Positions 15,015-56,469 of a stretch of DNA of 64,000 nucleotides are shown piece after piece; position 1 is the stretch's first letter, and every line of letters begins with the position of its first letter. The translations under genes were made by a program, and so were the position numbers. The stretch comes from Eledone cirrhosa (Eukaryota): contig OZ024740.1 of NCBI GenBank assembly GCA_964016885.1, positions 237,770,001 to 237,834,000 on the forward strand, read 5' to 3'. The notes under the pieces were generated by a model. The model made no database searches, was not told the DNA's origin, and worked only from the letters and a program-made list of their open reading frames with translations.

Positions 15015-18000
15015 AAGAGTGGACTGGGTGCTTTTTTTTCATGGCACCAGCACTACCATTTTACAGAGTGGACTGGGTGCATTTTTTTTCATGGCACCAG
15101 CACTACCATTTTACAGAGTGGACTGGGTGCTTTTTTTTCATGGCACCAGCACTACCATTTTACAGAGTGGACTGGGTGCTTTTTTTTCATGGCACCAGCA
15201 CTACCATTTTACAGAGTGGACTGGGTGCTTTTTTTTTCATGGCACTAGCACTACCATTTTACAGAGTGGACTGAGTGCATTTTTTTCATGGCACCAGCAC
15301 TACCATTTTACAGAGTGGACTGGGTGCTTTTTTTTCATGGCACCAGCACTACCATTTTACAGAGTGGACTGGGTGCTTTTTTTTTCATGGCACCAGCACT
15401 ACCATTTTACAGAGTGGACTGGGTGCTTTTTTTTTCATGGCACCAGCACTACCATTTTACAGAGTGGACTGGGTGCTTTTTTTTCATGGCACCAGCACTA
15501 CCATTTTACAGAGTGGACTGGGTGCTTTTTTTTTCATGGCACCAGCACTACCATTTTACAGAGTGGACTGGGTGCTTTTTTTTCATGGCACCAGCACTAC
15601 CATTTTACAGAGTGGACTGGGTGCTTTTTTATCATGGCACCAGCACTACCATTTTACAGAGTGGACTGGGTGCTTTTTTATCATGGCACCAGCACTACCA
15701 TTTTACAGAGTGGACTGGGTGCTTTTTTATCATGGCACCAGCACTACCATTTTACAGAGTGGACTGGGTGCTTTTTTATCATGGCACCAGCACTACCATT
15801 TTACAGAGTGGACTGGGTGCTTTTTTATCATGGCACCAGCACTACCATTTTACAGAGTGGACTGAGTGCATTTTTTTTCATGGCACCAGCACTACCATTT
15901 TACAGAGTGGACTGGGTGCTTTTTTATCATGGCACCAGCACTACCATTTTACAGAGTGGACTGGGTGCTTTTTTATCATGGCACCAGCACTACCATTTTA
16001 CAGAGTGGACTGGGTGCTTTTTTATCATGGCACCAGCACTACCATTTTACAGAGTGGACTGAGTGCATTTTTTTTCATGGCACCAGCACTACCATTTTAC
16101 AGAGTGGACTGGGTGCTTTTTTATCATGGCACCAGCACTACCATTTTACAGAGTGGATTGGGTGCATTTTTTTTCATGGCACTAGCACTACCATTTTACA
16201 GAGTGGACTGGGTGCTTTTTTATCATGGCACCAGCACTACCATTTTACAGAGTGGACTGGGTGCATTTATTTTCATGGCACCAGCACTACCATTTTACAG
16301 AGTGGACTGGGTGCTTTTTTATCATGGCACCAGCACTACCATTTTACAGAGTGGACTGGGTGCTTTTTTTATCATGGCACCAGCACTACCATTTTACAGA
16401 GTGGACTGAGTGCATTTATTTTCATGGCACCAGCACTACCATTTTACAGAGTGGACTGGGTGCATTTTATCATGGCACCAGCACTACCATTTTACAGAGT
16501 GGACTGGGTGCTTTTTTATCATGGCACCAGCACTACCATTTTACAGAGTGGACTGGGTGCTTTTTTTTCATGGCACCAGCACTACCATTTTACAGAGTGG
16601 ACTGGGTGCATTTGATCATGGCACCAGCACTACCATTTTACAGAGTGGACTGGGTGCTTTTTTTTCATGGCACCAGCACTACCATTTTACAGAGTGGACT
16701 GGGTGCATTTTTTTTCATGGCACCAGCACTACCATTTTACAGAGTGGACTAGGTGCTTTTTTTTCATGGCACCAGCACTACCATTTTACAGAGTGGACTG
16801 GGTGCATTTGATCATGGCACCAGCACTACCATTTTACAGAGTGGACTGGGTGCATTTTTTTTCATGGCACCAGCACTACCATTTTACAGAGTGGACAGAG
16901 TGCATTTATTTTCATGGCACCAGCACTACCATTTTACAGAGTGGACTGGGTGCTTTTTTATCATGGCACCAGCACTACCATTTTACAGAGTGGACTGGGT
17001 GCATTTATTTTCATGGCACCAGCACTACCATTTTACAGAGTGGACTGGGTGCTTTTTTATCATGGTACCAGCACTACCATTTTACAGAGTGGACTGGGTG
17101 CATTTGATCATGGCACCAGCACTACCATTTTACAGAGTGGACTGGGTGCTTTTTTATCATGGCACCAGCACTACCATTTTACAGAGTGGATTGGGTGCAT
17201 TTTTTTTCATGGCACTAGCACTACCATTTTACAGAGTGGACTGGGTGCTTTTTTATCATGGCACCAGCACTACCATTTTACAGAGTGGACTGGGTGCATT
17301 TATTTTCATGGCACCAGCACTACCATTTTACAGAGTGGACTGGGTGCTTTTTTATCATGGCACCAGCACTACCATTTTACAGAGTGGACTGGGTGCTTTT
17401 TTTATCATGGCACCAGCACTACCATTTTACAGAGTGGACTGAGTGCATTTATTTTCATGGCACCAGCACTACCATTTTACAGAGTGGACTGGGTGCATTT
17501 TATCATGGCACCAGCACTACCATTTTACAGAGTGGACTGGGTGCTTTTTTATCATGGCACCAGCACTACCATTTTACAGAGTGGACTGGGTGCTTTTTTT
17601 ATCATGGCACCAGCACTACCATTTTACAGAGTGGACTGAGTGCATTTATTTTCATGGCACCAGCACTACCATTTTACAGAGTGGACTGGGTGCATTTTTT
17701 TTCATGGCACCAGCACTATCATTTTACAGAGTGGACTGGGTGCTTTTTTTTCATGGCACCAGCACTACCATTTTACAGAGTGGACTGGGTGCATTTTTTT
17801 TCATGGCACTAGCACTACCATTTTACAGAGTGGACTGGGTGCTTTTTTTTCATGGCACCAGCACTACCATTTTACAGAGTGGACTGGGTGCATTTTTTTT
17901 CATGGCACTAGCACTACCATTTTACAGAGTGGACTGAGTGCATTTTTTTTCATGGCACTAGCACTACCATTTTACAGAGTGGACTGAGTGCATTTTTTTT

Positions 18001-20112
18001 CATGGCACCAGCACTACCATTTTACAGAGTGGACTGGGTGCATTTTTTTTCATGGCACTGACACTACCATTTTACAGAGTGGACTGGGTGCATTTTTTTT
18101 CATGGCACCAGCACTACCATTTTACAGAGTGGACTGAGTGCATTTTATCATGGCACCAGCACTACCACTTTACAGAGTAGATTGGGTGCATTTTATCATG
18201 GCACTAGCACTACCACTTTACAGAGTAGATTGGGTGCATTTTATCATGGCACCAGCACTACCACTTTACAGAGTGGGTTGGGTGCATTTTATCATGGCAT
18301 CACCACTACCACTTTACAGAGTAGATTGGGTGCATTTTATCATGGCACCAGCACTACCATTTTACAGAGTAAATTGGGTGCATTTTATCATGGCACTAGC
18401 ACTACCACTTTACAGAGTGGACTGAGTGCATTTTTTCATGGCACCAGCACTACCGTTTTACAGAGTGGGTTGGGTGCATTTTATCATGGCACCAGCACTA
18501 CCACTTTACAGAGTAGATTGGGTGCATTTTATCATGGCACTAGCACTACCACTTTACAGAGTAGATTGGGTGCATTTTATCATGGCATCACCACTACCAC
18601 TTTACAGAGTGGGTTGGGTGCATTTTATCATGGCACCAGCACTACCACTTTACAGAGTGGGTTATATGCATTTTATCATGGCACCAGCACTACCATTTTA
18701 CAGAGTGGGTTGGGTGCATTTTATCATGGCATAAGCACTACCACTTTACAGAGTGGATTGGGTGCATTTTATCATGGCACTAGCACTACCACTTTACAAA
18801 GTAGATTGGGTGCATTTTATCATAGCACCAGCACTACCACTTTACAGAGTGGGTTGGGTGCATTTTATCATGGCATCACCACTACCACTTTACAGAGTAG
18901 ATTGGGTGCATTTTATCATGGCACCAGCACTACCATTTTACAGAGTGGGCTGGGTGCATTTTATCATGGCACCAGCACTACCACTTTACAGAGTAGATTG
19001 GGTGCATTTAATCATGGCACCAGCACTACCACTTTACAGAGTGGGTTGGGTGCATTTTATCATGGCGCTAGCACTACCACTTTACAGAGTGGGTTGGGTG
19101 CATTTTATCATGGCATCACCACTACCATTTTACAGAGTAAATTGGGTGCATTTTATCGTGGCACTAGCACTACCACTTTACAGAGTGGACTGAGTGCATT
19201 TTATCATGGCACCAGCACTACCATTTTACAGAGTGGGTTGGGTGCATTTTACCATGGCACTAGCACTACCACTTTACAGAGTGGACTGAGTGCATTTTAT
19301 CATGGCACCAGCACTACCATCTTACAGAGTGGGTTGGGTGCATTTTATCATGGCACCAGCACTACCACTTTACAGAGTAGATTGGGTGCATTTTATCATG
19401 GCGCTAGCACTACCACTTTACAGAGTGGACTGAGTGCATTTTATCATGGCACCAGCACTACCATTTTACAGAGTGGGTTGGGTGCATTTTATCATGGCAC
19501 CAGCACTACCACTTTACAGAGTGGGTTGGGTGCATTTTATCATGGCATCACCACTACCATTTTACAGAGTAGATTGGGTGCATTTTATCATGGCACTAGC
19601 ACTACCACTTTACAGAGTGGGTTGGGTGCATTTGATCATGGCACTAGCACTACGATTTTACAGAGTGGATTGGGTGCATTTTATCATGGCACTAGCACTA
19701 CCACTTTACAGAGTAGATTGGGTGCATTTTATCATGGCACTAGCACTACCATTTTACAGAGTGGACTGGGTGCATTTTATCATGGCACCAGCACTACCAT
19801 TTTACAGAGTGGATTGGGTGCATTTTATCATTGCACTAGCACTACCACTTTACAGAGTGGATTGGGTGCATGTTATCATGGCACCAGCACTACCACTTTA
19901 CAGAGTGGATTGGGTGCATTTTATCATGGCACTAGAACTACCATTTTACAGAGTGAATTGGGTGCATTTTATCATGGCACCAGCACTACCACTTTACAGA
20001 GTGGATTGGGTGCATTTTATCATGGCACTAGCACTACCACTTTACAGAGTAGATTGGGTGCATTTTATCATGGCACTAGTACTACCACTTTACAGAGTGG
20101 GTTGGGTGCATT
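15015..20112. repeat. 48-51 bp tandem satellite, roughly 100 copies
   Basis: Consensus atggcaccagcactaccattttacagagtggactgggtgc(a/t)ttttt(t/a)tc repeated head-to-tail. Confidence 0.97.
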
Positions 20113-21552
20113 ATATTGCATCACAAGTTTTTCCATTTTCCAGTATGAGCTGAGCACATTATATTGTGAAATCAATAGATAATTTCAGAATCTCACTATA
20201 AATTAGTATTAATATGATATTTAGTGACACAGTAGTTTAGTTTTTAGGCTTAATAGTAAAGAGGTTCACTTCACCATTATGGGTTCTTGGTTCAGTTTCA
20301 CTGCATAGTCTTTTACCAAAGCCTTCTTCTTTTTCTTCTTCTTGAGTCATCCCTTTTTGAAAGAGGGATGACTAGCCATTAGAAAAAGCATTCATTTTTG
20401 CTTTTTCTAATGGCTAGAATATATGTCGCTCGCCACACCTGCAATTCATTTCTACATCTGAGTAAACTGTAGCATTTCTACATCTGAGTAAAGTGTCTTG
20501 CTCAAGGACACAATGCATCACCCACTAAGCCATGTGCCTTCACATAATTTTAGGTCAACCCAAACCTCGTGAGTGAACTTTGGTATACAAAATCTGTTTG
20601 GAAGCTCATCAGATTGAATGTACCTATAATTCAAAGGTCCAGCTATGCCATACACTGTGTCACACTGAATCTTCCAGAGAATTACATGAAGTATATGTTA
20701 AAGCAATGTGTATCCAGTTTAGAATAGGTACATCATAGCCATGCATGTTGTAACAAGGAACTAAAAGGGTTGGTGACAGGAAGGGCATTCAGCCATAAAA
20801 CATTAACTTAAAACGTCCCATCCAACCATACCAATGTGGAAAAGTCAATGTAAAAACGATGCTGATGATGATGATACATGTGTCAATGGAATACTCATTC
20901 ACATAGATGTTAGTTTCATGTGTAAACCATTCTGTTGCTGAACAACTGGAATACTCATCATCAAAACTGATGTGTTCCATTTATCTTTTAACTATTTTAG
21001 TTTTGAATTGCCAATATTATTTGATGTGGTAATGGACAGCCTAAATATACAAAGGTAGATTGCCTCCATATTGTATTTGACAATGGTAGCATCATTATAT
21101 TGACAGCTTCTTGGGAAGTCTGTTTATGTATCAATTTGTTTCAGCCTTCTGGTACTGACATTTAGATTTACTCCAGGAAAGATGCATGCAGTAAGTGCTT
21201 TATGTTTAGAAAGTGTTGGGAAGCTGCAAGTATGGTGAAGTATTTTTACATTACAACAAAACCTGATGCTACTGAATAGTAAGGTGTAAAACTAAAATCG
21301 TGTTTAAGACGTAAATATGAGTAAAAATAAAACTTGAGAAAGAATGAACAAAATGTCAGTATTGCTTTGTGTAAAAACAGAAATCTACTTACTGATACAT
21401 ACACGAGCATTTGGATGCTTTTGTTGAAGGTTTTCCAAAAAAATAATAAAACTTTATAAAGAACAAAATATCTAACAACTTCTGCTGCAAGATTTAAACA
21501 TGCAAAGAAAATGTGAGAAAACATTTGCAAACAATATATTATATATAACATT

Positions 21553-24134: not shown

Positions 24135-27100
24135 CATCATCATCATTATCATCATCATTTAACGTCTATCTTCCATACTGGCATGCGTTTAGACGGGAAT
24201 TGCCCCACTTGAGGCAAGATTGGTCGTCTCGCTTGTATGCGACTGTCTGGCAGGTTTTTACCGTGTTAGCTACACTGCCACATTACAGCGTGGACTGTGT
24301 GTTTTTTTGTCGTGACACCTACACGACCTCATTTGTTTAGGACTGGATGTTGTGGTACCAACATAACTTTACAGAGAAAGGGGTGGTGTTGAAAGGGGTG
24401 GTGTTGATGGGGGTGGAGGAGTTGGGATAGTGGGAGGGGGTGTATATTTGATTAAGAGGTGCCTACTGACTAGGTTTCACTTTGCACTTAGGCAAGGCGA
24501 GTTTTCTGTATTACTGCATGGCGCCAAAGATCTCGGTCTAGTGACATTGTCTTAGAGAGGCGTAAGTGTATAAGGTCAGAATTTATCAAATCATCCCAGG
24601 TTCTTCTGGGTCTGTCTACTCAGTAACTTCCGTCAATTTTGATCGCCCTGCACTTTTTTATACAGCTGTCGTCTTTCATGCGCATCACATGGCCATACCA
24701 ACGTAGTCTTCTCTCGAGTAAACAACATCTGATCCCTCTTATACCTAATTTCTCATTTAGTTCATTTATGCTTTGCTGTTCACAAATATTACTATTACAT
24801 ATCCAGCGGAGCATGCAAGCTTCGTTCCTCTCCAGTCTGTGCAGGTCCTCTGCACACGATGCCCATGTCTCACTGCCATGTAACATAGCTGTTTGTATGC
24901 AGGCATCATACAGTCTGCCTTTCATTTTTAGAGAGAAACCTTTAGTGGCCAACAGTGGTATAAGCTCTCTGAACTGTTTCCATCCTGTTCTGACTCTAGC
25001 TACTGTACTTTCAGAGCACCCTCCCCCACTGCTGATTTTGTCACCCAGGTAACGGAAGGTGTCCACTATTTCTATAGAGCCATCTGGGCAATAGAAGGAG
25101 CTAGTATCCTGTGGGCGCTTGTTACTTATTGCACCTGAGCACAGCCCACATGTAAAATCTACGTTCTTAGATAGCTTACCTGTGATCCCACTACATCTTT
25201 TATGCACCCATACTTTGCATTTGGGACATAAAATGGAATTTCTGCCTACTCCTTTCCTACACACTGAGCATGGCCATTTCCCAGAGGGGACCTGTGCCTA
25301 TTTTCCCTCCTACATCCTAGAACTTTAGTCTTAGACAAGTTAACTTTAAGGCCTTTTGATTCTAGGCCATGCTTCCATGTTTGGAATTTCTTCTCTAGTT
25401 CAGCCATCAATTCAACTATGAGTGTTAGATCGTCTGCATAGAGAAGTTCCCGTGGGCAGCCGGTCTTGAACTCCTCATTTATGGTCTGAGGGGCAATAAT
25501 AAATAGGAGGGGGTTAAGGAGAGAGCTCTGATGGACACCAACTTTTATGCTAAATTCTTCACTATATTCGTTGTTAATTCTGACCTTGCTGACTGTTTCT
25601 TTATACATGGCTTGTATAGCTCTCACAAGCCATTCATCTACACCTAGTTTTCTAAGAGCCCACCAGATAATGGAGTGGGGGACTCTGTCAAAGGCTTTCT
25701 CCAAGTCAACAAAAGCTAAGTAGAGGGCTTTACCTTTAGCTAGGTACTTCTCCTGTAGTTGTCGTACAAAGAAAAGGGCGTCTGTGGTACTTTTACCTGA
25801 CACAAATCCAAACTGCATTTCGTCTAGATCAATTTTCTCTCTTATTAGTTGCGCTATAACTTTTTGTGTGACCTTCATGACCTGGTCAATTAATTTAATG
25901 CCTCTATAGTTTCCTCTATCTAGTGCATCTACTTTACCCTTGTAGCAGTTAATGATGATGCTGCTATGCCAGTCATTTGGTATGACCCCGTTCTGTATGA
26001 CTTGGTTTACTATCCGTGTGACCATAGTGTGTCCCACCGCTCCAGATGCTTTCAGCATTTCAGCAACTATCTCATCTCCGAAGGCCCAGCTGCCTTGTCT
26101 GTCTTCATATCTTTGATTGCCTTACTTATTATACTACCTTCAACTTGCACTGCTGGTCCCTCTATTGGATCGATGTGGGGCAGACTATCTTTGTCCCATT
26201 TATGCTCCTCATTTAGTGGCCTCTCGTAGTGACACTTCCAAGCTACCTTCTTATCAGCATCAGTGATGGCAAGTACACCATCATCATTACGGACACACTT
26301 CTCCCCGACAATATCACGGTTTTCCTTGACACATTGCCTAGCAATCCTGAACACCTCACATTTTTGGTCCTCGCATTGTAGAACATGTTTGAACTTTCTT
26401 CCCTCTGCTTCCCTTCTTGCAAAGTACACTTGTCTCCTAGCTTCCCTCCTGGCCACTTGATAGTCTTCTCTACTTCCCCATCTCACCATACTTTCCAAGC
26501 CTGCTTTTTGGCCTTGATTGACTCCTCCACCTTACTGTTCCACCACCAAGTTACTCTCCTCCTGCCTATAGGTCTGCTCCAGCCACAGATTTCATCTATC
26601 GCCTTCAGCAGGTTATTCTTCTCCTTGGGTAGTCTTCCTCTGTTGTCGAGTACGTCTCGTCCTGACTATGAGGTCGCTAACTATGAGGCTATGTTGGCAG
26701 GTGCATTCTTCATGGGGGATGGATTTAGTGTTTGCAACAGACACTCTGTCACGTCTTCTGGTAAGGATATAATCTATCTGACTGGCGTGTTCCCCTGATC
26801 TATAAGTGATCAAGTGATTGTCTCGTTTTTAGAAGTTTGTGTTACAGATAGTTAGGTTATTTGCATCACAGAATTCCAGGATTCTGGAGCCTAACTCATT
26901 TCTAGTACCAAACACATAGCCTCCATGGATTCCGTCATAGCTGTCACAATATTGTCCAATATGACCATTTAGGTCGCCAGCAATAATTATGTAGTCACTG
27001 TCAGTTATTTGGGAGGTAGTGAACATTAGCGACTCATAGAATCTGTCTTTTATAACGCCAGGCAGTCTGGATTGGGGTGCATATGCGGATATTATTGTCA

Positions 27101-27240
27101 CAGTAGTTCTATTTAAGAAAGTCTTATTTTAATTATTCTGTCGTTCACTCTAATTATGTCTATTATCTTATCTACCCATTTTTCTGCTAGCATGATTCTT
27201 ACCCACCCAGCCCATTGTCATTTCCCACCCAGAAATTTTA
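24135..27240 (-). mobile_element. RTE LINE family A, long decayed copy (APE, RT, PHD-like finger, 3' UTR)
   Basis: ORFs 26829-27101, 26067-26498, 25246-26058 (AFVDLEKAFD, YADD) and 24620-25264; collinear with the 33560-36529 ORF, with frameshifts and an internal deletion near 26610. Confidence 0.93.
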
Positions 27241-28292: not shown

Positions 28293-28948
28293 GGGCGGTG
28301 AATGGGCAGTATCGTTAGAGCATTAAACACCTTGCTTTGCAGCATAGAGTTATGACCCTTTACATTCTGAGTTCAAATCCTGCGAGGTTAGCTTTGCTTT
28401 TCATCCTTACAGGGTTGATAAAATAAATCACCAGTAACACACTGGGGTCGATTTCGTCAACTTTCCCCTCCCACCTAAATTGCTGGCCTTGTGCCTATAG
28501 TAGAATCATAAAATAAAGTACCAGTAATGCACTGGGTAATTGCTGGCCTTGTGCCTAACGTAGAAACAATTATTACTTGGCAGTATCGGTAGAGGGTCGG
28601 ACGCCATGCTTTTGCAGCATAGAGTTATGGGCCTTTACGATCTGAGTTCAAATCCCGCCGAGGTTAACTTTGCCTTTCATCCTTACGGGGTTGATTAAAT
28701 AAAGTACCAGTAATGCACTGGGATAATTGCTGGCCTTGTGCCAAAAGTAGAAACAGTTATTACTACTACCATCAATGTTATAGTTTTATTTTCCTCTCAT
28801 TATGGTCATCACTAATGTTATCATTGTCATCTCTTTATCGTTGTCGTTTTTCTGAGTTAAAATCCCGCTGAGGGGTTGATAAAATAAAGTACCAGTAATG
28901 CATTGGGGTAATTGCTGGCCTTGTGCCAAAAGTAGAAACAATTATTAC
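28293..28948 (+). mobile_element. Cluster of three SINE family A copies (28293-28572, 28577-28760, 28852-28948)
   Basis: Repeated gagttcaaatcc...ctttcatccttacgggg...aagtaccagtaatgcactggg...gtagaaaca. Confidence 0.85.
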
Positions 28949-29062
28949 TATACATTTCTGCATTATCCCATAGATTGTTGATTCTACTCCTACCATACTA
29001 TGAGTATTAATTATTATTAACTTTTCTTTCATAATTTTCCATATATATTCTAATGTTAATTC

Positions 29063-30174: not shown

Positions 30175-30640
30175 TTATTTTCTATTCTAGGGTGGGTAAA
30201 ATTCCCAAGATCCATGGACGAGTTCTCTCCAGCGGTCTCTGTCCCTCATTATCGCTGCCATGTCCTGTGTCTCCAACAGTCCAATATCTGTCCTTATAGG
30301 GCATCAACATACGTTAACTTTGGTCTTCCTCTTCCAGTGTGTCCATGTAGGGGCTCCCACAGGAGCACTGAGTGCAATGTCAACTCTGGTTGTCGGTGAG
30401 CATGTCCAGCTAACCTCAGTCTCCTCTGTGTCACTTTTGAGCTGACTTTTGGGAGGCTCCCATACAGCTCTGAGTTTTTCATCCTCAGTGTATACTGATT
30501 AATGTTCAGAGCCATCCTCAGTATTCTCGTGTAGCACCCATTCACCATCTGAGTGAGTTTCTTGGTCAGTGTCCAAGTCTCAGACCTGTACAGCAGCACA
30601 GACTCCACTACAGCAATGAAGAGGCGGATTTTCAGGTCTT
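30175..30640 (-). mobile_element. RTE-like LINE, third family, 3' fragment
   Basis: ORF 30294-30608 ESVLLYRSETWTLT...RILRMALNI...RRLRLAGH...GRGRPKLTY. Confidence 0.8.
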
Positions 30641-30910
30641 TAAATAATTACAACAGTGACATAAACAGATATTTAAGTTTTGTTGTGATCTTAGTCACTA
30701 CCTTAAAATTCATAGCAAATGGCCTTCAAAATTATTTTAAATAAACATACAGTATATTATTAAATATACAATACGTACATTCATATATACATCGCTATTT
30801 CAGAGACCCAATACTAATCTCTAATTTATACTGGGCTGGCAACTGTTCTGTATGTTAATGAGTTTAAACAGCTCATAAACATAACTGGACTTCTATAAGA
30901 ATCCAGCTTC

Positions 30911-31017
30911 TATAACTCTCGGCAAAAAGCGAAGAGGTATGTAGTCTTGACAACCACTTACAAGTGAGAAACGGTGACCGTTGATTACTCCCCTTTGCTT
31001 TTGCCGGGACTAGTTAT
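30911..31017 (+). ncRNA. Type I hammerhead ribozyme with U3-A8 compensatory core and long extended stem I
   Basis: gtagtc(30941)-TTGACAA-c cact taca agtg a-GAA-Acgg tga ccgT-T-gattac(30988); stem I extends via ctcggcaaaaagcgaagagg / ccctttgcttttgccggg. Confidence 0.75.
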
Positions 31018-31304
31018 GTGATGTTAGTTACTACCTTAAAATTCATAGCGAATAACCTTCAAAATGTTTTAAAATAAACATACAGTATATTATTAAATAT
31101 ACAATATATACATACATGTGTGTGTGTGTTTGTGTATGTATACTTTATATATCTTTTATTTTTAGTTCATATTTTATTTTATTCTATTCTTTATAATTTA
31201 TTCTCGTTTTAACCTTTAACCTGTTAATGTCCATTATATTTCCATGTTCCACCATTCACTTCATGATCTATCTATACTGTATCATCATTACCTGTATGAT
31301 TCCC

Positions 31305-31805
31305 TTTATGATCTGAGTTCAAATCCCGCCGAGGTTAACTTTGCCTTTCATCCTTACGGGGTCGATAAAATAAAGTACCAGTAATGCACTGGGATAATTG
31401 CTGGCTTTGTGCCTAAAGTAGAAATAATTATTATTGATACTACTATTATTGTCAATGTTTTTCTAATTATTGGAATAATCATTATCATTGTTTACATCTA
31501 TAGTTTACCATGAGTAGTAATACATTTGATATATCATATATAGATACTTAATGTTTGGTATATAATATAAGTAACATTAGTATTGTTTTTAACATCACCA
31601 TCAACGTCTTCATTATTTGGATTGGCAGTATCGATAGAGAGTCAGACACAATGCTTTGAAGCATAGAGTTACGTCCCTTTATGATCTGAGTTCAAATCCC
31701 GCCGAGGTCAACTTTGCCTTTCATCCTTACGGGGTCGATAAAATAAAGTACCAGTAATGTACTGGGTAATTGCTGGCCTTGTGCCAAAAGTAGAAACAAT
31801 TATTA
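31305..31805 (+). mobile_element. Two SINE family A copies (31305-31435, 31622-31805)
   Basis: Same B box and core as other family A copies. Confidence 0.85.
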
Positions 31806-32010
31806 TAAATGGTGTTGTTATTGTTGATGTTGTTGCCATGGTAGTTGTTGTTGGCGAGCCAAAATATTCCCATGATTGCATAAGTACACTCCATGATTGA
31901 ATGAACTTCTGATGAAGTCACATGCATAACATTGTAATAGAAATATATATCATGCAATAAAGCAATCATTGTGAAGTAACCCCTTTAACTACTCTTAATA
32001 TGATATATAA

Positions 32011-32044: not shown

Positions 32045-32911
32045 CATCATCATCACCTTCGTTTAACGTCCATTTTCCACTCTAGCATGGGTTAGACGGG
32101 AGTTGTCCCACTTGAGGCAAGGTTGGTCGGGTGACCGTGTCTCGCTCATATAGGACTATCTGGCAGGTTTTCTACGGCTGGATGCCCTTCTAACACCAAC
32201 CACATTTATAGTGTGCAACTGGAAACTTTTTACCGTGTTACCTACACGGGCACATTACAGCGTGGACTGTGTGTTTTTTTTATCATGACACCTACACGAT
32301 ATCGATCTCATTATCTCATTTATTTGGACTGGATGTTGTGGTACCAACTTTACAGAGAGAGGGTGGTGTTGGTGGGAGTGGGAGGATAGGGTAGGAGTAG
32401 TAGATTGGGGTGTATATTTTGTTAAGAGGTGCCTACTGACTGTAGGTTTCGCTTTGTACTTAGGCAAGGCAGGTCTTCTGTATTACTGTGTAGCGCCAAA
32501 GATCTCGGTCCAGTGACATTGTCTTGGAGAGGTGTAAGTGTGTAAGGTTGGAATTTATCAGATCGTCCCAGGTTTTTCTGGGTCTATCTACTCCGTAACT
32601 ACCATCAATTTTGATCGCCCTGCACTTTTTTATACAGCTGTCTTCTTTCATGCGCATCACGTGGCCATACCAACGTAGTCTTCTCTCGAGTAAACAGCAT
32701 CTGATCCCTCTTATTCCTAATTTCTCACTTAGTTCATTTATGCTTTGCCGTTCACGTATATTACTATTACACATCCAACGGAGCATGCAAGCTTCGTTCC
32801 TCTCCAGTCTGCGTAGATCCTCTGCACACAATGCCCATGTCTCACTGCCATGTAGCATTGCTGTTCGTATATAAGCATCATACAATCTGCCTTTCATTTT
32901 TAGAGAGAAAC

Positions 32912-32915
<4 letters not shown>
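32045..32915 (-). mobile_element. RTE LINE family A, 3' fragment between (TA)n tracts
   Basis: [14 protein letters not shown]...[13 protein letters not shown]...RPRKTW plus ~400-nt 3' UTR and (GAT)n tail. Confidence 0.92.
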
Positions 32916-33160: not shown

Positions 33161-36100
33161 ATCATCATCATCATCATCATCAACGTTTAACGTCCGTGTT
33201 CCACGCTTGCATGGGTTTGGACGGGGGTAGTCCCACTTGAGGCAAGAGTGATTGTCTTGCTCGCATAGGACTGTCTGGCAGGTTTTCTACAGTTGGATGC
33301 CCTTCCTAACACCAACCACATTTACAGTGTGGGTCTGGGAGGTTTTTACCGTGTTGCCTACACGGCCACATTACAGCGTGGACTGTGTGTTTTTTTGTCG
33401 TGACACCTACACGATCTCATTTGTTTCGGCCTGGATGGTGTGGCACCAACACAACTTTACATAGAACGGGGTGGCGTGGATGGGGTGGGGGTGGTGGGAC
33501 GGGGGGAGGGGGTATTTTGTTAGAGATGCCTACTGGTTGTAGTAGGTTTTACTATGTATTTAGGTAAGGCGGGTCTTCTCTGTTACTGAGTACCGCCAAA
33601 GGTCTCGGTCCAGTGACATTGTCTTGGAGAGGTGTAAGTGTGTGAGGTCAGAGTTTATCAGCTCGTCCCAGGTTTTTCTAGGTCTGCCTATTCCATGGCT
33701 ACCGTCTATCTTTATTGCCCTGCACTTTGTTATACAGCTATCAAATTTCATGCGCATCACGTGTCCATACCAACGTAGCCTTCTCTCGAGTAAACAACAT
33801 CTGATCCCTCTTATTTCTAATTTTTTCCTTAGTTCGTTTATGCTTTGCCGTTCACGTATATTACTGTTACACATCCAGCGGAGCATGCAAGCTTCGTTCC
33901 TCTCTAGTCTGCGTATATCCTCTGCGCACAATGCCCAGGTCTCACTGCCATGCAACATTGCTGTTCGTATGCAGGCATCGTACAACCTGCCTTTCATTTT
34001 TAGGGAGAACCCTTTAGCGGCTAATAGTGGTATAAGCTCTCTGAACTTTTTCCAACCAGTTCTGACTCTAGCTACTGTACTTTCAGAGCACCCTCCCCCA
34101 CTGCTGATTTTATCACCCAGGTAACAGAAGCTGTCCACTATTTCTATAGAACCCTCTGCGCAATTGAAAGAGCTAGTATTTTGTGGGCACTTGCTGCTAC
34201 TTATTGCACCAGAGCACCGGCCACATGTAAAATCTATGTTCTTAGTTAGCTTACCTGTGATCCCACTACATCTTTTATGCACCCATACTTTGCATTTAGG
34301 ACATAAAATGGAGTTTCTACCTACGCCTTTCCTACACACCGAGCACGACCATTTCCTTGAAGGGACCGCCGCCTTATTTTCTTTCCTACAAACTAGAACT
34401 TTAGTCTTAGCCAGGTTAATTTTAAGGCCTTTTGATTCTAGGTCGTGCTTCCATGTTTGGAATTTCTTCTCTAGCTCGGCCATTGATTCCGCTATGAGTG
34501 TCAGGTCGTCTGCGTATAGGAGTTCCCATGGGCAGCCGGTCTTGAACTCCTCCGTTATAGCCTGAAGGGCAATAATAAATAGTAGGGGGCTGAGAACAGA
34601 GCCCTGATGGACACCAACTTTTACGCTAAACTCTTCACTATATTCGTTGTTAATTCTAACCTTGCTGACTGTTTCTTTATACATGGCTTGTATAGCTCTC
34701 ACAAGCCATTCGTCAACGCCTAGTTTTCTAAGAGCCCACCAGATAATGGAGCAGGGGACTCTGTCGAAGGCTTTCTCCAAGTTGACAAAAGCTAAGTAGA
34801 GGGGTTTACCTTTAGCTAGGTACTTCTCCTGTAGTTGTCGTACAATGAAAAGAGTTTCTGTGGTACTTTTGCCTGACACAAACCCGAACTGCATTTCATC
34901 TAGGTCAATTCTCTCTCTGATTAGTTGTGCTATTACTTTTTCCGTGACCTTCATGACCCGGTCGATTAATTTAATGCCTCTATAGTTACTCCTATCTAGG
35001 GCGTCTCCTTTACCCTTATAACAGTTAACGATGATGCTGCTATGCCAGTCCTTCGGAACAACCCCATTCTGTACGACTTGGTTAACTATGCGGGTGACCA
35101 TGGTGTGTCCCACCGTGCCAGATGCCTTCAGCATCTCAGCAACTATTTCCGAAGGCCCAGCCGCCTTACCCGTCTTCATATCCTTGATTGCCTTACTTAT
35201 CATACTCCCCTCGACTAACACTGCTGGTCCCTCTATTGGGTCGATATGGGGGAGACTGTCTTTCTCCCATTTATTCTCCTCATTTAGTAGCCTTTCATAG
35301 TGACACTTCCAAGCTACCTTCTTATCAGCGTCGGTGATGGCAAGTGTGCCATCGTCGTTTAGTACACACTTCTCCCCGACAATATCACGGTTTTCTTTGA
35401 CGCATTGCCTAGCAATCCTGAACACCTCACGTTTTTGGTCATCGCATTGTAGAACATGCTTGAACTTTCTTTCCTCAGCTTCCCTTCTTGCTAAGTACAC
35501 TTGTCTCCTAGCTTCCCTCCTGGCCACTTGATAGTCTTCTCTACTTCCCCCATCCCGCCATACTTTCCAAGCCTGCTTTTTGGCCTTAATTGACCCCTCC
35601 ACCTTACTGTTCCACCACCATGTTACTCTCCTCCTGCCTACAGGCCTGCTCCAGCCACAGACTTCGTCTGTCGCCAACAGCAGGTTTGCTTTCAGAAATT
35701 CCCACTCTCCCTCTATATTGTCCGACTCTAAAAGTTCTTCCTTACTGTCGAAAGCATCAAGTAATATGCTTTGAAATTTATTCCTGGCTGTGGGGTCCTT
35801 TAGCTTCCATATTTTTCTCCTGAGGATAGTCCTCTTCTGTTGTCGAGTACGTCTCGTCCTGACTATGAGGTCGCTAATTATCAGTCTATGTTGGGAGGTG
35901 CATTCTTCATGGGGGAGGGATTTAGTGTTTACAACAGACACTCTGTCACGTCTTCTGGTAAGGATATAATCTACCTGGCTTGTGTGTTCCCCGGATCTAT
36001 AGGTGATCAGGTGATTGTCACGTTTTTTGAAGTTAGTGTTACAGATAGTTAGGTTATTTGCATCACAGAATTCCAGGATTCTGGAGCCTTCCTCATTTCT

Positions 36101-36529
36101 AGTACCAAACCCATAGCCTCCATGGATTTCGTCGTAGCCGTCACAATGTTGTCTAACGTGACCATTTAGGTCGCCTGCAATAATTATATAGTCACTGTCG
36201 GATATTTGGTAGGTAGTTAGCATCAGTGTCTCATAGAATCTGTCTTTTATAGTGCCGGGCAGTCCGGATTGGGGTGCGTACGCAGATATTACTGTCACCG
36301 TAGTTCTATTGAGGACAAGTCGTATTTTAATTATTCTGTCGTTCACTCTATTTACGTCTATTATCTTATCTGCCCACTTTTCTGCTACCATGATTCCTAC
36401 TCCACCCAGCCCATCGTCGTTTCCCACCCAGAAAAGCTTATAACATCGTTTTTTTTTACCCTCAATGAATCTAGCAGACCCACCCCTCCACCTGGTCTCT
36501 TGAATACAACAAACATCGACCTCCTTCAT

Positions 36530-36531
<2 letters not shown>
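33161..36531 (-). mobile_element. RTE LINE family A, near full-length young copy, slightly 5'-truncated
   Basis: Uninterrupted ORF plus 3' UTR (33180-33559) and (GAT)n tail; 5' end abuts (TA)n. Confidence 0.95.
33560..36529 (-). CDS. RTE ORF: APE endonuclease, reverse transcriptase, PHD-like C4HC3 finger, C-terminal RTE domain (989 aa from the first element-derived Met)
   Basis: CIQETRW, ISAYAPQ, GDLNGHV, SQVDYIL, SQHR (APE); YRGIKL, QFGF, AFVNLEKAFD, GVHQGSVLSPLLF, YADD (RT); first 39 aa of the 1028-aa ORF come from microsatellite and flank. Confidence 0.93.
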   Translation of the reverse strand: MKEVDVCCIQETRWRGGSARFIEGKKKRCYKLFWVGNDDGLGGVGIMVAEKWADKIIDVNRVNDRIIKIRLVLNRTTVTVISAYAPQSGLPGTIKDRFYETLMLTTYQISDSDYIIIAGDLNGHVRQHCDGYDEIHGGYGFGTRNEEGSRILEFCDANNLTICNTNFKKRDNHLITYRSGEHTSQVDYILTRRRDRVSVVNTKSLPHEECTSQHRLIISDLIVRTRRTRQQKRTILRRKIWKLKDPTARNKFQSILLDAFDSKEELLESDNIEGEWEFLKANLLLATDEVCGWSRPVGRRRVTWWWNSKVEGSIKAKKQAWKVWRDGGSREDYQVARREARRQVYLARREAEERKFKHVLQCDDQKREVFRIARQCVKENRDIVGEKCVLNDDGTLAITDADKKVAWKCHYERLLNEENKWEKDSLPHIDPIEGPAVLVEGSMISKAIKDMKTGKAAGPSEIVAEMLKASGTVGHTMVTRIVNQVVQNGVVPKDWHSSIIVNCYKGKGDALDRSNYRGIKLIDRVMKVTEKVIAQLIRERIDLDEMQFGFVSGKSTTETLFIVRQLQEKYLAKGKPLYLAFVNLEKAFDRVPCSIIWWALRKLGVDEWLVRAIQAMYKETVSKVRINNEYSEEFSVKVGVHQGSVLSPLLFIIALQAITEEFKTGCPWELLYADDLTLIAESMAELEKKFQTWKHDLESKGLKINLAKTKVLVCRKENKAAVPSRKWSCSVCRKGVGRNSILCPKCKVWVHKRCSGITGKLTKNIDFTCGRCSGAISSSKCPQNTSSFNCAEGSIEIVDSFCYLGDKISSGGGCSESTVARVRTGWKKFRELIPLLAAKGFSLKMKGRLYDACIRTAMLHGSETWALCAEDIRRLERNEACMLRWMCNSNIRERQSINELRKKLEIRGIRCCLLERRLRWYGHVMRMKFDSCITKCRAIKIDGSHGIGRPRKTWDELINSDLTHLHLSKTMSLDRDLWRYSVTEKTRLT

Positions 36532-36616
<85 letters not shown>

Positions 36617-36622
<6 letters not shown>

Positions 36623-36840
36623 AAATTGAGGTTGGTAATAGCACATGGAATATATAAGAGACAGAATACTTTTTTGTGAAAAAACATATAATTTTATAAG
36701 GTAAGGAAATAATAAAGGGTATAAAACATTTTTTATACCCTTTATTATTTCCTTACCTTATAAAATTATATGTTTTTTCACAAAAAAGTATTCTGTCTCT
36801 TATATATTCCATGTGCCATTACCAACCTCAATTTTCTCTA
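36617..36840. repeat. ~220 bp near-perfect palindrome (centre ~36728)
   Basis: gagaaaattgaggttggtaat...gggtataaaa / cat / ttttataccc...attaccaacctcaattttctc. Confidence 0.93.
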
Positions 36841-38832: not shown

Positions 38833-41572
38833 TCTATAAAAGGCAGATTGTTGTTGCTGTGTGTGTGTGTGCATGTTCCATGTTTATACATTTGCACAAT
38901 TTCAAACCGATTCGACTCAACGTCTGTAAGAATGTTGTAAATGGCCTAACTTAGGTCAACGACTATTTATTTCATTCAAACTCACCCACACTTACGAAAA
39001 TAATCGATAAAACTAAATACATGACGCTTTAACCCTCTAATAGAATCTGATTATCTCTCTCTACTCCCCTTAAAATTCAATAAAACTACATACATGCTTA
39101 CAAACTTCCTTTCGGAACGCCGAAGAGAGAGAGAGGACAGAGAGAGAACGTTTGTTTTTGAGTGTGGAACGGCCAAACATTTATTTACTTCAATGACAAA
39201 GAGAACTTTTACATTTCATACGAAACAACAATTATTCAAAAGCAACAGATAAATTTATTCAACAACAAAAAACATAGCGATAAATCTTTTTTAAAACCTC
39301 TCAACGAACGTGGAAGAAAGAAGTATCAGTTTATTTACTATACACAATAATATACTCTATGAGGTCACTAAACCTGCTAGAAATAGCAGCTAACTCTCCC
39401 CCATATCACACCACTCCATACTGTCTTAAATTTAGAAAACACATATCCTCTATGAGGTCACTAAACCTGCTAGAAACAGCATCTAACTCTCCCCCATATC
39501 ACACCACTCCCTACTGTCTTAAATTTAGAAAACATATCCTCTATGAGGTTACTAAACCTGCTAGAAATAGCAGCTAACTCTCCCCCATATCACACCACTC
39601 CCTACTGTCTTAAATTTAGAAAACACATATCCTCTATGAGGTCACTCTGCTAGAAACAGCAGCTAACTCTCCCCCATACCACACCCCTCCCTACTGTCTT
39701 AAATTTAGAAAACACACATTAGAAAACCATGCAGAACAACTCCATCGCAGCTCTGTTGTTCGGCTGGCATTGTCTACGCGTGTGTTGCGCAAGTACTGTG
39801 AAACAATAAATTTCAACACTTCTTTGCACAGAGATAATATCCATAGGCGAAACTACAATTGTCACTGCTGGCGCAGCTCCTGCTTCGGCAGTCCGGGTCT
39901 GCAATTCATTCACCCAGTGCCTGGCAGACAAAAAAGTGCTGCCATAAAATGGGTGGTGCAACCTAACTTTGGTAACTTACTGACCCCGAGCAACGCCGGG
40001 CTTTAATGCTAGTTATCTATAAAATGCAGATTGTTGTTGTTGTGTGTGTGGGTGCATGTTCCATGTTTATACATTTGCACAATTTCAAACCGATTCGACT
40101 CAACGTCTGTAAGAATGTTGTAAATGGTCTAACTTAGGTCAACGACTATTTATTTCATTCAAACTCATCCACACTTACGGAAATAATCGATAAAACTAAA
40201 TACATGACGCTTTAACCCTCTAATAGAATCTGATTATCTCTCTCTACTCCCCTTAAAATTCAATAAAACTACATACATGCTTACAAACTTCCTTTAGGAA
40301 CGCCGAAGAGAGAGAGAGGACAGAGAGAGAACGTTTTTTTTTAGTGTGGAACGGCCAAACATTTATTTACTTCAATGACAAAGAGAACTTTTACATTTCA
40401 TACGAAACAACAATTATTCAAAAGCAACAGATAAATTTATTCAACAACAAAAAAAATAGCGATAAATCTTTTTTAAAACCTCTCAACGAACGTGGAAGAA
40501 AGAAGTATCAGTTTATTTACTATACACAATAATATACTCTATGAGGTCACTAAACCTGCTAGAAACAGCAGCTAACCCTCCTCCCTATCACACCACTCCC
40601 TACTGTCTTAACTTTAGAAAACATATCCTCTATGAGGTTACTAAACCTGCTAGAAATAGCAGCTAACTCTCCCCCATATCACACCACTCCATACTGTCTT
40701 AAATTTAGAAAACATATCCTCTATGAGGTTACTAAACCTGCTAGAAATAGCAGCTAACTCTCCCCCATATCACACCACTCCCTACTGTCTTAAATTTAGA
40801 AAACATATCCTCTATGAGGTTACTAAACCTGCTAGAAATAGCAGCTAACTCTCCCCCATATCACACCACTCCCTACTGTCTTAAATTTAGAAAACACATA
40901 TCCTCTATGAGGTCACTCTGCTAGAAACAGCAGCTAACTCTCCCCCATACCACACCCCTCCCTACTGTCTTAAATTTAGAAAACACACATTAGAAAACCA
41001 TGCAGAACAACTCCATCGCAGCTCTGTTGTTCGGCTGGCATTGTCTACGCGTGTGTTGCGCAAGTACTGTGAAACAATAAATTTCAACACTTCTTTGCAC
41101 AGAGATAATATCCATAGGCGAAACTACAATCGTCACTGCTGGCGCAGCTCCTGCTTCGGCAGTCCGGGTCTGCAATTCATTCACCCAGTGCCTGGCAGAC
41201 AAAAAAGTGCTGCCATAAAATGGGTGGTGCAACCTAACTTTGGTAACTTACTGACCCCGAGCAACGCCGGGCTTTAATGCTAGTTATCTATAAAATGCAG
41301 ATTGTTGTTGTTGTGTGTGTGTGCATGTTCCATGTTTATACATTTGCACAATTTCAAACCGATTCGACTCAACCTCTGCAAGAATGTTGTAAATGGTCTA
41401 ACTTAGGTCAACGACTATTTATTTCATTCAAACTCACCCACAATTATGGAAATAATCGATAAAACTAAATACATGACGCTTTACTCCTCTAATAGAATCT
41501 GATTACCTCTCTCTACTCCCCTTCAAATTCGATAAAACTACATACATGCTTACAAACTTCCTTTCGGAACGC

Positions 41573-41637
<65 letters not shown>

Positions 41638-42323
41638 TTTGTTTTTGAGTGTGGAACGGTCAAACATTTATTTACTTCAATGACAAAGAGAACTTATTAC
41701 ATTTCATACGAAACAACAATTATTCAAAAGCAACAGATAAATTTATTCAACAACAACAAAAAAAAATAGCAATAAATCTTTTTAAAAACATCTATCAACG
41801 AACGTGGAAGAAAGAAGTATCAGTTCATTTACTATACACAATAATATCCTCTATGAGGTCACTAAACCTGCTAAAAACAGCAGCTAACTCTCCCCCATAT
41901 CACACCACTCCCTACTGTCTTAAATTTAGAAAACACATATCCTCTATGAGGTCACTAAACCTGCTAGAAACAGCAGCTAACTCTCCCCCATATCACACCC
42001 CTCCCTACTGTCTTAAATTTAGAAAACACACATTAGACAACCATGCAGAACAACTCCATCGTAGCTCTGTTCGGCTGGCATTGTCTACGCGCGTGTTGCG
42101 CAAATACTGTGAAACAATAAATGTCAACACTTCTTTGCACTGAGATAATATCCATAGGCGAAACTACAATTGTCACTGCTGGCGCAGCTCCTGCTTCGGC
42201 AGTCCAAGTCTGCAATTCATTCACCCAGTGCCTGGCAGACAAAAAAGTGCTGCCATAAAATGAGTGGTGCAACCTAACTTTGGTAACTTACTGACCCCGA
42301 GCAACGCCGGGCTTTAATGCTAG
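38833..42323 (+). mobile_element. Three head-to-tail non-autonomous Helitron-like units (~38833-40012, 40013-41283, 41284-42323), each with an internal ~91-93 bp minisatellite
   Basis: Each unit begins tctataaaa.gcagattgttgttg and ends ccccgagcaacgccggg-ctttaatg-CTAG; minisatellite copies 4, 5 and 2. Confidence 0.85.
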
Positions 42324-43899: not shown

Positions 43900-46800
43900 C
43901 GTATGTGTTTTGATCAAGATAGGCTAAATACGTTTGACAAAAGTGGACTTGGAAAAGATCAGCTTTCAACTATGATCCGAAACATGATTATTCTACAGAG
44001 AAATTGATTGGTACTGGAGCAATGTCAAAAGAGTGCAATTTTTGTAAAGGAAAGGAATGGGAAAGAGAAACCCTCATTATATGTTGGTGGAGGAGGAACG
44101 GTTGTTCTATCGATGTTTCTTGCACACACACCTCCCCACCCCCCAGATACTTTGAAGACATTGCTTTGGGGAGCATGCTCTTCTTGAAAAACATTAGAAG
44201 TTACAATTCTACTTTCCAAATGAGATCTTTTGGTAGCAATATTATAAGAGAAGGGAACATGAAGCCAGCCTTTAAGGTTTGAGGTCAACTATACCATCAT
44301 ATTGGATCTTTGTTGCCAACTGAAGGTAAAATCCACAGTTTTTGCAGTTATATTTTGTGTCAAATTTCAAGGACCAAGCTTTGCAACGGCCATTGGACCT
44401 TCCAAATCTGAAAGAAGAGTTAATCTTTGATCTGCAAGATATGTTGCATGTAAACAATAGCTACACCAGAAAATTCTAATATGCATTGGAATCTGCGCCA
44501 CTAAAATGTAGTCACTGAAACAGACAAAAAGCCTGTTGGTGAACACAGAGACTGCTACAATGTCCCTGCTGCAAATGAAGTAGCAGCAATTATTACTGGC
44601 GATGAGTATGGGAGGAGGGATATTTTTATTCAAGGAAGAGGAAATAAGATGTTGCAGATAAATACAGCCCACCAATCATATGATGCACTCTAGTATCCAT
44701 TAATCTGTGTATTTGGCCAAGATGGATATCAGTTTGGTATTGTGGCAGTTGCCTCCCTTGTTGTGACTCACAACCCCAATAGATTAACAACATCTAGACG
44801 GGAAGTGGAACCCTTTCTGTAACTTCCGGTCAGAACCCTATAAAACTAACAACTTTAAGTTCTCACTCTCTCATTTGCCCTTCCGGCGCCTGGCCTTCGC
44901 CAGGCGTCTTCTGCCAGCCTGCGTTTGCATGGCAATCAAAACGGTAACTACTAACTTTGCTTCATTGTTTCATCTATTTCTTTGACATGTCAACTATACT
45001 GTTAAATTGTTGATTAAATATTATACACACAAACCATGTCTCCTTGTTACATTCATACAACCCAGTATCTTCGCTATAGTATCAAACAAACAGATCTTTA
45101 AACACCTGCTCCTGCACTGACAAAAACAGTAAGCTACGTGGAATTCTATGCTTACCCTTTCATATTAATAGAGCAAGACTTTAATATTCTTCATCATTCA
45201 CGTGAGCTCTTCCAGCAATTTGCAGTTGATATGTATGCATAAATTGAAGGAGAAAGGCTCTTTATATTAGAACACATCAGAAAGATCTCTGTGCATCAGA
45301 TTGCATTCACCTGAAAGATGCAATCAGTAATGAAGGTGCATTGCTGTTGATATCATTGGACAGTTTTGTGTCAGTCTTCCATCAAGCTTTACAGGAAATC
45401 CACGGTATATGCATGAGTGTACCTAACATGCACATGCATATGTCAGACACTATGGTCGTCCAAACCTCTTCATTACATTCACATGTAACCCAACATGGCA
45501 TGAAATAAAGAGTGAGCTTTATCATCATCAAGAACACAAAGATCGCCATGATATTATAGCTAGGGTGTTCAGACTGAAAGTCATAAAGCTAATGGTTCTT
45601 CTAAAAAAAGGTGAATTTTTTGGACCAGTCAAATGTGACACATATCCAACTGAATGGCAAAAACGAGGATTGCCACATTCCCACATTTTGATTTGGTTAC
45701 ATGAAAAACTTCGGCCAAATGATGTTGATTTATTTATCTCAGCTGAACTGTCTGATCCACAGCAAGATCCTTTGTTGCATGACATTGTCAAGTCACAGAT
45801 GATTCATGGGCCCTGTGGTTAAATTAATCCATCCTCCCCATGTATGAGGGATAAAAAGTGTACCAAAAAACTACCCCCGCCCCCCTATACAATAAACCAA
45901 AACTGAATAAGATGGCTATTTCATTTACAGGAGAAGAAAACCTGAGCAGGGTGGATTCACTTCGAAAAAAAAAAAAATGGGCAAGAATTTATCATTGACA
46001 ATTGGTGGATTGTACCCTACTGTTATCTTCTTACAAAAACTTTCAAAGCCCATATCAATGTTGAATTCTGCAACTCTGTTAAGTCTATTAAGTATGTTTG
46101 CAAATATATAAACAAAGGTTTAGATGCTGCAGCATACAATCTTTTGCAGAATGGCAGTCAGCAGATAAATAAAAATGACAAAGTTATACAGTATGAGAGC
46201 AGGTTACACCAGTAGCAATGAGGCTTTTTGGCGAATTTTCCCATTCATGAAAGGCGCCCAGCCATCATTCAACTGATCATTTTGCATGAAGTACGTTGTT
46301 CCAAATCATTCCAAGATTTGAGGAGAGTCAATGCGTGAAACATATAGGGTAGCATGCTATCAAAAGGTTTGTTAGAAAATGATTATCATTGGGACCTTGC
46401 ATTAACTGAAGCATCAGTGTCATATTTTCCAAGGAAATTCCGTAACCTTTTTGCCATTACACTGAACATGTGTCAACTTGGCAGTCCTCGACAACTTTGG
46501 ATGAAACATCAAGAGGATATGGCTGGGGACTTAAAGTATGCAGCTCAATATGCAAACCCAAGCACAAGCATTGACATTCAGTTCTGTGAAGAAATTTTCA
46601 ATCAAACATTGAATGAAATTGAGGATCAATTTTGGTCATGGGAGGCAGGAATTTGCAAGAGTCTGGTTCTGAACTGTCAAAATCAAAGTGATTTAACTTC
46701 AAGAGAGACAAAGTTAGTGGCATTTGTGAATGAACATGAGCCTAAACATCTTCCAGAACAACTCTGGGCATATTATGAAATCATTTCGTCAGTCAAGAGG

Positions 46801-55400: not shown

Positions 55401-56469
55401 AGTATAAATATGGTTTTAGTGAAATGACAGTATAAATATGGTTCTAGTGAACTGGCAGTATAAATATGGTTATAATGAAGTGACAGTATAAATATGGTTC
55501 TAGTGAAATGGCAGTATAAATATGGTTTTAGTGAAATGACAGTATAAATATGGTTCTAGTGAACTGGCAGTATAAATATGGTTATAATGAAGTGACAGTA
55601 TAAATATGGTTCTAGTGAAATGGCAGTATAAATATGGTTTTAGTGAAATGACAGTATAAATATGGTTCTAGTGAAATGGCAGTATAAATATGGTTTTAGT
55701 GAAATGGCAGTATAAATATGGTTCTAGTGAAATGGCAGTATAAATATGGTTCTAGTGAAATGACAGTATAAATATGGTTTTAGTGAAATGACAGTATAAA
55801 TATGGTTCTAGTGAAATGACAGTATAAATATGGTTCTAGTGAAGTGACAGTATAAATATGGTTCTAGTGAAATGGCAGTCTAAATATGGTTCTAGTGAAA
55901 TGACAGTATAAATATGGTTCTAGTGAAGTGACAGTATAAATATGGTTCTAGTGAAATGGCAGTCTAAATATGGTTATAATTAGGTGACAGTATAAATATG
56001 GTTCTAGTGAAATGGCAGTATAAATATGGTTCTAGTGATATGACAGTATAAATATGATTCTAGTGAAATGACAGTATAAATATGGTTCTAGTGAAATGAC
56101 AGTCTAAATATGGTTCTAATGAAGTGACAGTATAAATATGGTTCTAGTGAAATGACAGTATAAATATGGTTCTAGTGAAATGGCAGTATAAATATGGTTC
56201 TAGTGAAATGACAGTATAAATATGGTTCTAGTGAAATGGCAGTATAAATATGGTTTTAGTGAAATGACAGTATAAATATGGTTTTAGTGAAATGACAGTA
56301 TAAATATGGTTCTAGTGAAATGGCAGTCTAAATATGGTTCTAATGAAGTGACAGTATAAATATGGTTCTAGTGAAATGGCAGTCTAAATATGGTTCTAGT
56401 GAAATGACAGTATAAATATGGTTCTAGTGAAGTGACAGTATAAATATGGTTCTAGTGAAATGACAGTAT
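55401..56469. repeat. 28-bp minisatellite, ~38 copies
   Basis: Unit agtataaatatggttctagtgaaatgac. Confidence 0.97.

Follow-up and report, generated by a model that had tools for sequence, protein, structure and literature searches.

Animal genomes harbour non-LTR retrozymes, which are described as low-G+C tandem repeats of 150–450 bp that carry type I hammerheads and yield RNA circles in coral, mussel and axolotl (PMC7229834). The unit lengths given by Cervera and de la Pena in 2020 are 220–245 bp in coral, 350–390 bp in mussel and 330/350 bp in axolotl (PMC7229834). These elements have been argued to derive from the pseudo-LTRs of Penelope-like elements (PLEs; bioRxiv 2026.07.22.740005), and a PLE protein as the mover of animal retrozymes is so far a proposal (bioRxiv 2026.07.22.740005, PMC7229834). 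PLEs can end in an optional tail of 30–40 bp (bioRxiv 2021.04.23.441226). For example, in the anole element PAc (Poseidon, Anolis; Frangieh et al. 2024), the tail is the gap between two internal start sites of the reverse transcriptase downstream of the hammerhead. PAc targets are AT-rich, and hammerhead mutants are reported to insert in vitro unimpaired (PMC11167929). Because these mutants inserted, and because 8 of 9 tested Xenopus retrozyme dimers failed to cleave (bioRxiv 2026.07.22.740005), ribozyme activity should not be assumed for the family described here.

Hammerheads with a U3-A8 pair in the core have also been reported. Several scattered natural examples are active in vitro (Perreault et al. 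2011, PMC3088659), and the substitution occurs in about 1,300 minimal, PLE-type hammerheads of Schistosoma (Cervera and de la Pena 2014, PMC4209133). The original prediction, which called U3-A8 a known rare substitution, was right that it is known and overlooked the Schistosoma cases. The 10.1–11.1 pair has been termed the second most conserved (PMC3088659), and U·U at this position occurs in active natural hammerheads (PMC7229834, PMC3088659). Natural U3-A8 hammerheads and animal retrozymes have thus each been published, separately. A search of the open-licence literature found no publication uniting U3-A8 with a canonical-size retrozyme hammerhead, nor any that treats U3-A8 retrozymes or retrozymes of cephalopods; supplements or other papers may list variants. 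The cephalopod repeat papers examined contain neither 'hammerhead' nor 'ribozyme' in their text; a giant squid paper gives 235 Rfam hammerhead-1 loci.

A 333-bp unit with one hammerhead

The window, which is the whole 64-kb stretch of DNA that was analysed, contains a hammerhead motif bracketed by a direct repeat of 101 bp (30684–30784 and 31017–31117; 11 mismatches, 89% identity). The repeat period is 333 bp, and the locus comprises 1.30 units with one ribozyme. The original prediction had recognised the bracketing repeat; its dimensions (a repeat of ~85 bp, a unit of ~335 bp and ~1.25 monomers) are corrected by these values. The features of the locus are as follows.

30309..30635, minus strand: decayed 3′ fragment of an RTE-like LINE, an unrelated upstream neighbour (tblastn 28% over 111 aa, E 4.5e-4, against the window's RTE-like ORF)
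30684..30784, plus strand: 5′-truncated partial copy of the unit, a pseudo-LTR-like redundancy without hammerhead (89% identical to 31017–31117 at a spacing of 333)
30785..31117, plus strand: complete 333-bp non-coding unit, 34% G+C (from repeat spacing and family coverage)
30785..30818, plus strand: segment of about 30–34 bp between two putative termini, candidate PLE-type 'tail' (from loose ends; absent from the 3′ end of the window copy)
30885..30906, plus strand: small predicted hairpin upstream of the ribozyme, within a segment common to a far more abundant repeat
30911..31018, plus strand: extended helix I around the hammerhead (predicted fold; commoner family letters improve the pairing)
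30941..30988, plus strand: type I hammerhead with helix II above a C·A mismatch (helices I/II/III of 6/4/4 bp)
30947..30953, plus strand: hammerhead core box UUGACAA with U3 and A8 (UUGAUAA in diverged relatives)
30982..30982, plus strand: H17, with predicted cleavage 3′ of the base (U in the window copy, C in most family copies)
31017..31117, plus strand: 3′ copy of the terminal repeat and end of the element, with the tail segment absent (from the repeat comparison)
31118..31142, no strand: (GT)/(AT) microsatellite flank, without target-site duplication

The size and composition of the unit (333 bp, 34% G+C) lie within the range that defines retrozymes (150–450 bp, G+C below 45–50%, type I hammerhead), and no ORF of at least 85 aa was found across it. 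The locus also bears the signature of a PLE insertion: a partial tandem, a 5′-truncated upstream copy and no fixed target-site duplication. No such duplication was detected here, the longest word common to both 45-bp flanks being 5 bases. The unit is single-copy within the 64-kb window and multi-copy in public runs. The locus would be unable to release a monomer or a circle itself because it holds only one hammerhead.

The type I hammerhead fold occupies 30941–30988 on the plus strand, with the core box at 30947–30953, GAAA at 30968–30971 and U30982 as H17. Helix I (30941–46/30983–88) has 6 bp including one G-U, helix II (30955–58/30963–66) has 4 bp, and helix III (30971–74/30978–81) has 4 bp of near-palindromic sequence; pair probabilities across the helices are 0.74–0.97. 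The three helices meet in a core that is open at helix I, as in type I hammerheads. This core has a Watson-Crick 3-8 pair, U4 G5 A6, A9, G12 A13 A14, an A15.1-U16.1 pair and an H17 that is not G (U17 in the window copy). At the base of helix II, a C30954·A30967 mismatch occupies the usual G10.1-C11.1 position. Type I hammerheads are expected to be paired at 10.1–11.1, which C·A is not, although pairing is not strictly required there; the sequence can also be parsed differently, by adding a base on either side. The mismatch may lower activity. The original statement that stems I–III all pair thus captured the helices of 6, 4 and 4 bp and left out this position.

Beyond an internal loop, helix I continues with 19 predicted pairs over 30917–30937/30990–31009, in agreement with the ~20-bp extension first proposed, and then on to 30911/31018, for a total of about 25 further predicted pairs. 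A 121-nt stretch folds with a z of −5.4 (0 of 200 shuffles equally stable). All three helices persist when the 333-bp unit is folded as a circle (z = −5.5, 0 of 100 shuffles). A descriptor accepting CUGANGA or UUGANAA, with thresholds set to fit the 30941–30988 motif itself, matched once in the 64-kb window and in 0 of 200 block-wise dinucleotide shuffles. The UUGACAA core with its U3-A8 pair is therefore present as predicted, and the hammerhead motif in the window exceeds chance. A looser scan returned three other weak matches in the window, with helix II/III of 2–3 bp or an unpaired helix II base, and all of them fail the stricter descriptor.

In its non-coding 333-bp unit, its G+C of 34% and its canonical-size type I hammerhead, the family resembles the metazoan non-LTR retrozymes described in PMC7229834, and like them it is multi-copy and closes head-to-tail. 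Axolotl HHR_Amex2 is likewise mismatched (U·U) at the helix II base (PMC7229834). Unlike the elements of that paper, the family has a U3-A8 core and, at the base of helix II, a C·A mismatch, and the window locus consists of 1.3 units with a single ribozyme, not of a dimer or an array, and is without target-site duplication. The same 3-8 covariation is seen in the Cercyon PLE hammerheads of Schistosoma mansoni (PMC4209133; supplement examples UUGAUAAA and UUGAAAAA). Those motifs are described as minimal, without a stable helix III, and mostly single or in the pseudo-LTRs of coding PLEs, whereas the window hammerhead has a 4-bp helix III and a long helix I and lies in an ORF-less 333-bp unit. 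The 3-8 pair also covaries in the examples of Perreault et al., but these are not presented as a retrozyme family (PMC3088659).

Searches of Rfam with a 6-kb region or with the isolated 141 nt did not match any hammerhead family, up to an E value of 10, as had been anticipated for standard searches; the matches were to microsatellites and hairpins alone, all below gathering scores. Two other identities were considered and rejected. An autonomous PLE, which would encode a telomerase-like reverse transcriptase and a GIY-YIG endonuclease, does not fit a unit devoid of an ORF, and no PLE endonuclease (GIY-YIG) was found in the 80 of 141 window reading frames scanned. A schistosome-type hammerhead SINE does not fit either, as no RNA polymerase III A or B box was found with exact consensus patterns on both strands, strict patterns that a decayed box could escape. 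The family motifs were absent from the metagenome contigs, prokaryote genomes and viral contigs searched. When the U3-A8 pattern was relaxed, 40 viral matches appeared, and in none of them do helix I and helix II both reach 4 bp. One viral match, L029:601-634, combines a UUGA-AA core with a helix III and 4 bp of helix II, yet has only 2 bp of helix I; it may be a variant hammerhead or may be due to chance.

Copies of the family in public runs

Four public runs were compared with one period of the unit (30776–31108) at 80% likeness. Runs X1 and X2 are contigs from one sample of organism A, X4 consists of contigs from organism B, and X5 holds raw reduced-representation reads from another sample of organism A. 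Matching records numbered 2190 (X1), 2105 (X2), 525 (X4) and 1072 (X5), and the rows listed are 40 of 262 variants, 15 of 94 joints, 24 of 645 loose ends and 24 of 5112 pieces. The unit is multi-copy, with single variant letters within it common to 38–46 X1 contigs, and it is found in organisms A and B. Every 12-bp bin of the unit is covered in all four runs.

Among the 24 of 645 loose ends listed, four have a consensus that extends into the core, two of them in X1 (behind 30924 with 28 contigs, and behind 30928 with 13) and two in X2 (behind 30924 with 28, and behind 30926 with 18). All four read UUGAUAA, at an agreement of only 0.57–0.73, and none reads CUGANGA. They sit behind three different helix I strands and represent three distinct sequences. 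Between the window copy and these consensuses, position 7 of the core varies and positions 3 and 8 do not, as is typical of a working core. The 40 of 262 variants listed include none at 30947 or 30952, and minor variants are possible there. Since all four listed consensuses agree behind three helix I strands, U3/A8 appears to be a trait of the family and decay an unlikely explanation for the pair. This bears out the original proposal that the two changes are compensatory. That proposal had named two sequence-level outcomes as contrary to it: a family with CUGANGA and independent mutations, which is absent among the listed core-reaching consensuses, and a single-copy unit, which the multi-copy, head-to-tail family contradicts.

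At the predicted cleavage site, a T>C change at 30982 is present in 41, 45 and 16 contigs, at an X1 depth of 660/791, and in 34 of 40 X5 reads. The predicted cleavage triplet is GUC in most family copies versus GUU in the window copy. In the extended helix I, the letters that are more common in the family at 30935 and 31007 mend a mismatch and a wobble of the window copy, and a listed change at 30979 leaves helix III paired as G-U. Divergence of the helix I strands while the core is kept points to selection on the RNA. At several of the positions where the two repeat copies of the window disagree, namely 31029, 31054, 31055 and 31071, the upstream copy has the family letter. By these sequence differences, the window copy reads as old and drifting. 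The single window locus is an aged copy without sign of host function.

Further evidence concerns the integrity of the unit. The 30818/30819 junction is bridged in both organisms by contigs that are 10–19% different from the window (X1 record 1, X2 record 9 and X4 records 17–21). In organism B, two divergent contigs span 30784–31080 and 30789–31106 and each cover some 300 bp of the unit. The joint that links its end to its start, from 31106 to 30776, occurs in all four runs (3, 4 and 7 contigs; 22 reads from 10 starts), a joint that 1.3-unit copies such as the window copy would equally produce. Because divergent contigs bridge both junctions in two organisms, the family unit appears to close head-to-tail. 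Among the 24 of 5112 pieces listed, none runs across the whole unit and none has two ribozymes.

The ends of the family copies appear to lie at two places. Loose ends of 46 and 41 contigs and of 131 reads pass into (AT)n behind 30818, as do those of 152 reads behind 30812. Behind 31106 (64, 55 and 29 contigs), they run through about 15 unit-like letters and then into (AT)n; the X5 consensus behind 31106 instead runs into the tail segment 30785–30818. From these loose ends, one family terminus at 30812–30818 appears clear. A second probably lies about 30 bp earlier, at ~30784–30789, and is also suggested by the window copy's own end at 31117. This shorter terminus is the weaker of the two: it lies in an (AT) run, and such an internal run could make contigs break off. 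Two ends about 30–34 bp apart would match the optional PLE tail of 30–40 bp. As in PAc (PMC11167929), a hammerhead is followed by about 100 or more nt and then by what appear to be two ends 30–40 nt apart, and partial tandems, 5′ truncation and AT-rich targets are also held in common. Unlike in PAc, no ORF for a reverse transcriptase-endonuclease follows the putative tail, and the likeness is one of layout.

Read depth is uneven along the unit. The hairpin segment at 30884–30919 is about 50–100 times deeper in public runs than the adjoining ribozyme; in X1, the summed depth is 6–10 × 10^4 over this segment versus about 10^3 over the ribozyme. The terminal segments and the hairpin reach a summed depth of about 10^5, and the ribozyme about 10^3, figures that do not represent a copy number. 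We read the excess only as an indication that some far commoner relative shares the terminal segments and the hairpin.

Origin and mobility

We consider it probable that the locus is an old 1.3-unit copy of a multi-copy 333-bp family with a U3-A8 type I hammerhead, likely a non-autonomous retrozyme mobilised by PLEs. Membership among the retrozymes is, on its sequence features, probable. The retrozyme-like reading given originally gains from the family-wide U3/A8, the multiple copies and the head-to-tail closure; it had not taken in the PLE-like termini and the decayed U17.

The proposed mechanism has two stages: (i) a locus of at least two units would act as the source and be transcribed, and the U3-A8 hammerheads of intact copies would cut after GUC, setting free monomers of 333 nt that a host ligase may close into circles; (ii) a PLE reverse transcriptase/endonuclease would nick AT-rich DNA and begin cDNA synthesis within the RNA, from either of two positions that lie some 135 and 170 nt downstream of the cut. 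Synthesis would pass more than one unit and then stop, leaving a full unit behind a 5′-truncated partial copy, and the window copy would have decayed after insertion. The 1.3-unit layout results equally from a circle and from a linear template in partial tandem, as in PLEs, and we regard a circle and a linear multimer as about equally probable templates. A retrozyme-sized unit with ends that fit the PLE two-start-site rule offers a direct test with purified PLE protein.

A broader claim is decidedly more tentative, and we would sooner expect it to fail than to hold. It envisages an abundant superfamily with U3-A8, C·A and full-size helices, present in at least two related animal species, that cleaves, forms ~333-nt circles, is invisible to Rfam and CUGANGA searches and bears a PLE tail. 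If true, the structure of a retrozyme with a PLE tail would testify directly to the mobilisation of animal retrozymes by the reverse transcriptases of PLEs. Family-wide U3-A8 with full helices would be a natural test of the tolerance of the hammerhead core to change, and it suggests that CUGANGA-based surveys undercount retrozymes.

The locus could alternatively be debris of autonomous PLEs, that is, two adjoining 5′-truncated PLE ends (one with the tail and one without) or the relic of an internal deletion. The depth profile fits this, as the terminal segments and hairpin belong to something some 100-fold more abundant (about 10^5 versus 10^3), as would be expected of the pseudo-LTR of a prolific PLE, and most PLE hammerheads are reported as single motifs from truncated elements (PMC4209133). 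However, several divergent contigs, from both organisms, bridge the 30818/30819 junction, which this account takes to be accidental, and helices of 6, 4 and 4 bp are of the canonical retrozyme type and not the minimal PLE type described in PMC4209133. Moreover, the listed loose ends behind 30818–30827 are (AT)n or unit-like, with no different common continuation. We therefore consider PLE debris unlikely.

Somewhat less likely again is spread at the DNA level, by satellite-like tandem duplication or unequal crossover, with the terminal repeat as a local duplication and the hammerhead as a passenger. Local tandem amplification of PLE terminal sequence has been invoked by Li et al. (bioRxiv 2026.07.22.740005), and the two repeat copies of the window share letters unlike the family majority (for example, at 31035, 31056 and 31094). 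A single event of reverse transcription predicts such shared letters equally well, however, and the copy is dispersed, being the only one in 64 kb. Family copies end at fixed points in microsatellites, and the kept core between diverged helix I strands points to selection on the RNA.

The last account, that UUGACAA is a decayed CUGACGA (C-to-U plus CpG loss) in a dead copy with coincidental compensation, draws on two common transitions, an old copy (repeats 89% alike) whose C17 has decayed to U, and minor variants at 30947 and 30952 that may exist beyond the 40 of 262 listed, but it is largely refuted and very improbable, given that all four listed core-reaching consensuses read UUGAUAA, with no CpG at positions 7–8 and none with CUGANGA.

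Surroundings of the element

The DNA of the window is animal-like, with many LINEs, SINE-like repeats and microsatellites. At 33563–36646 (minus strand) lies an RTE-like LINE ORF that runs uninterrupted for 1028 aa and has endonuclease and reverse transcriptase domains followed by a PHD-finger match; similar PHD-bearing ORFs (about 50% identity) occur in public collections. Broken RTE-like copies with protein identities of 84–92% lie at 24491–27234 (minus), 61910–63842 (plus) and 32463–32915 (minus). SINE-like repeat copies of about 190 bp, 62–96% alike where matched, are found at 28299–28954, 31303–31440 and 31618–31813, and may resemble octopus SINEs. A Helitron helicase N-terminal fragment is present at 45427–45819 (plus strand; E 2.5e-29). 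Tandem repeats include a 48-bp minisatellite of about 104 copies at 15016–20116, which gives rise to long spurious ORFs and to a Pfam match to mitochondrial carriers that is likewise spurious, three short arrays of a 91–93 bp unit (39350–39716, 40532–40985 and 41844–42030), and a 28-bp minisatellite of 38 copies at 55401–56469.
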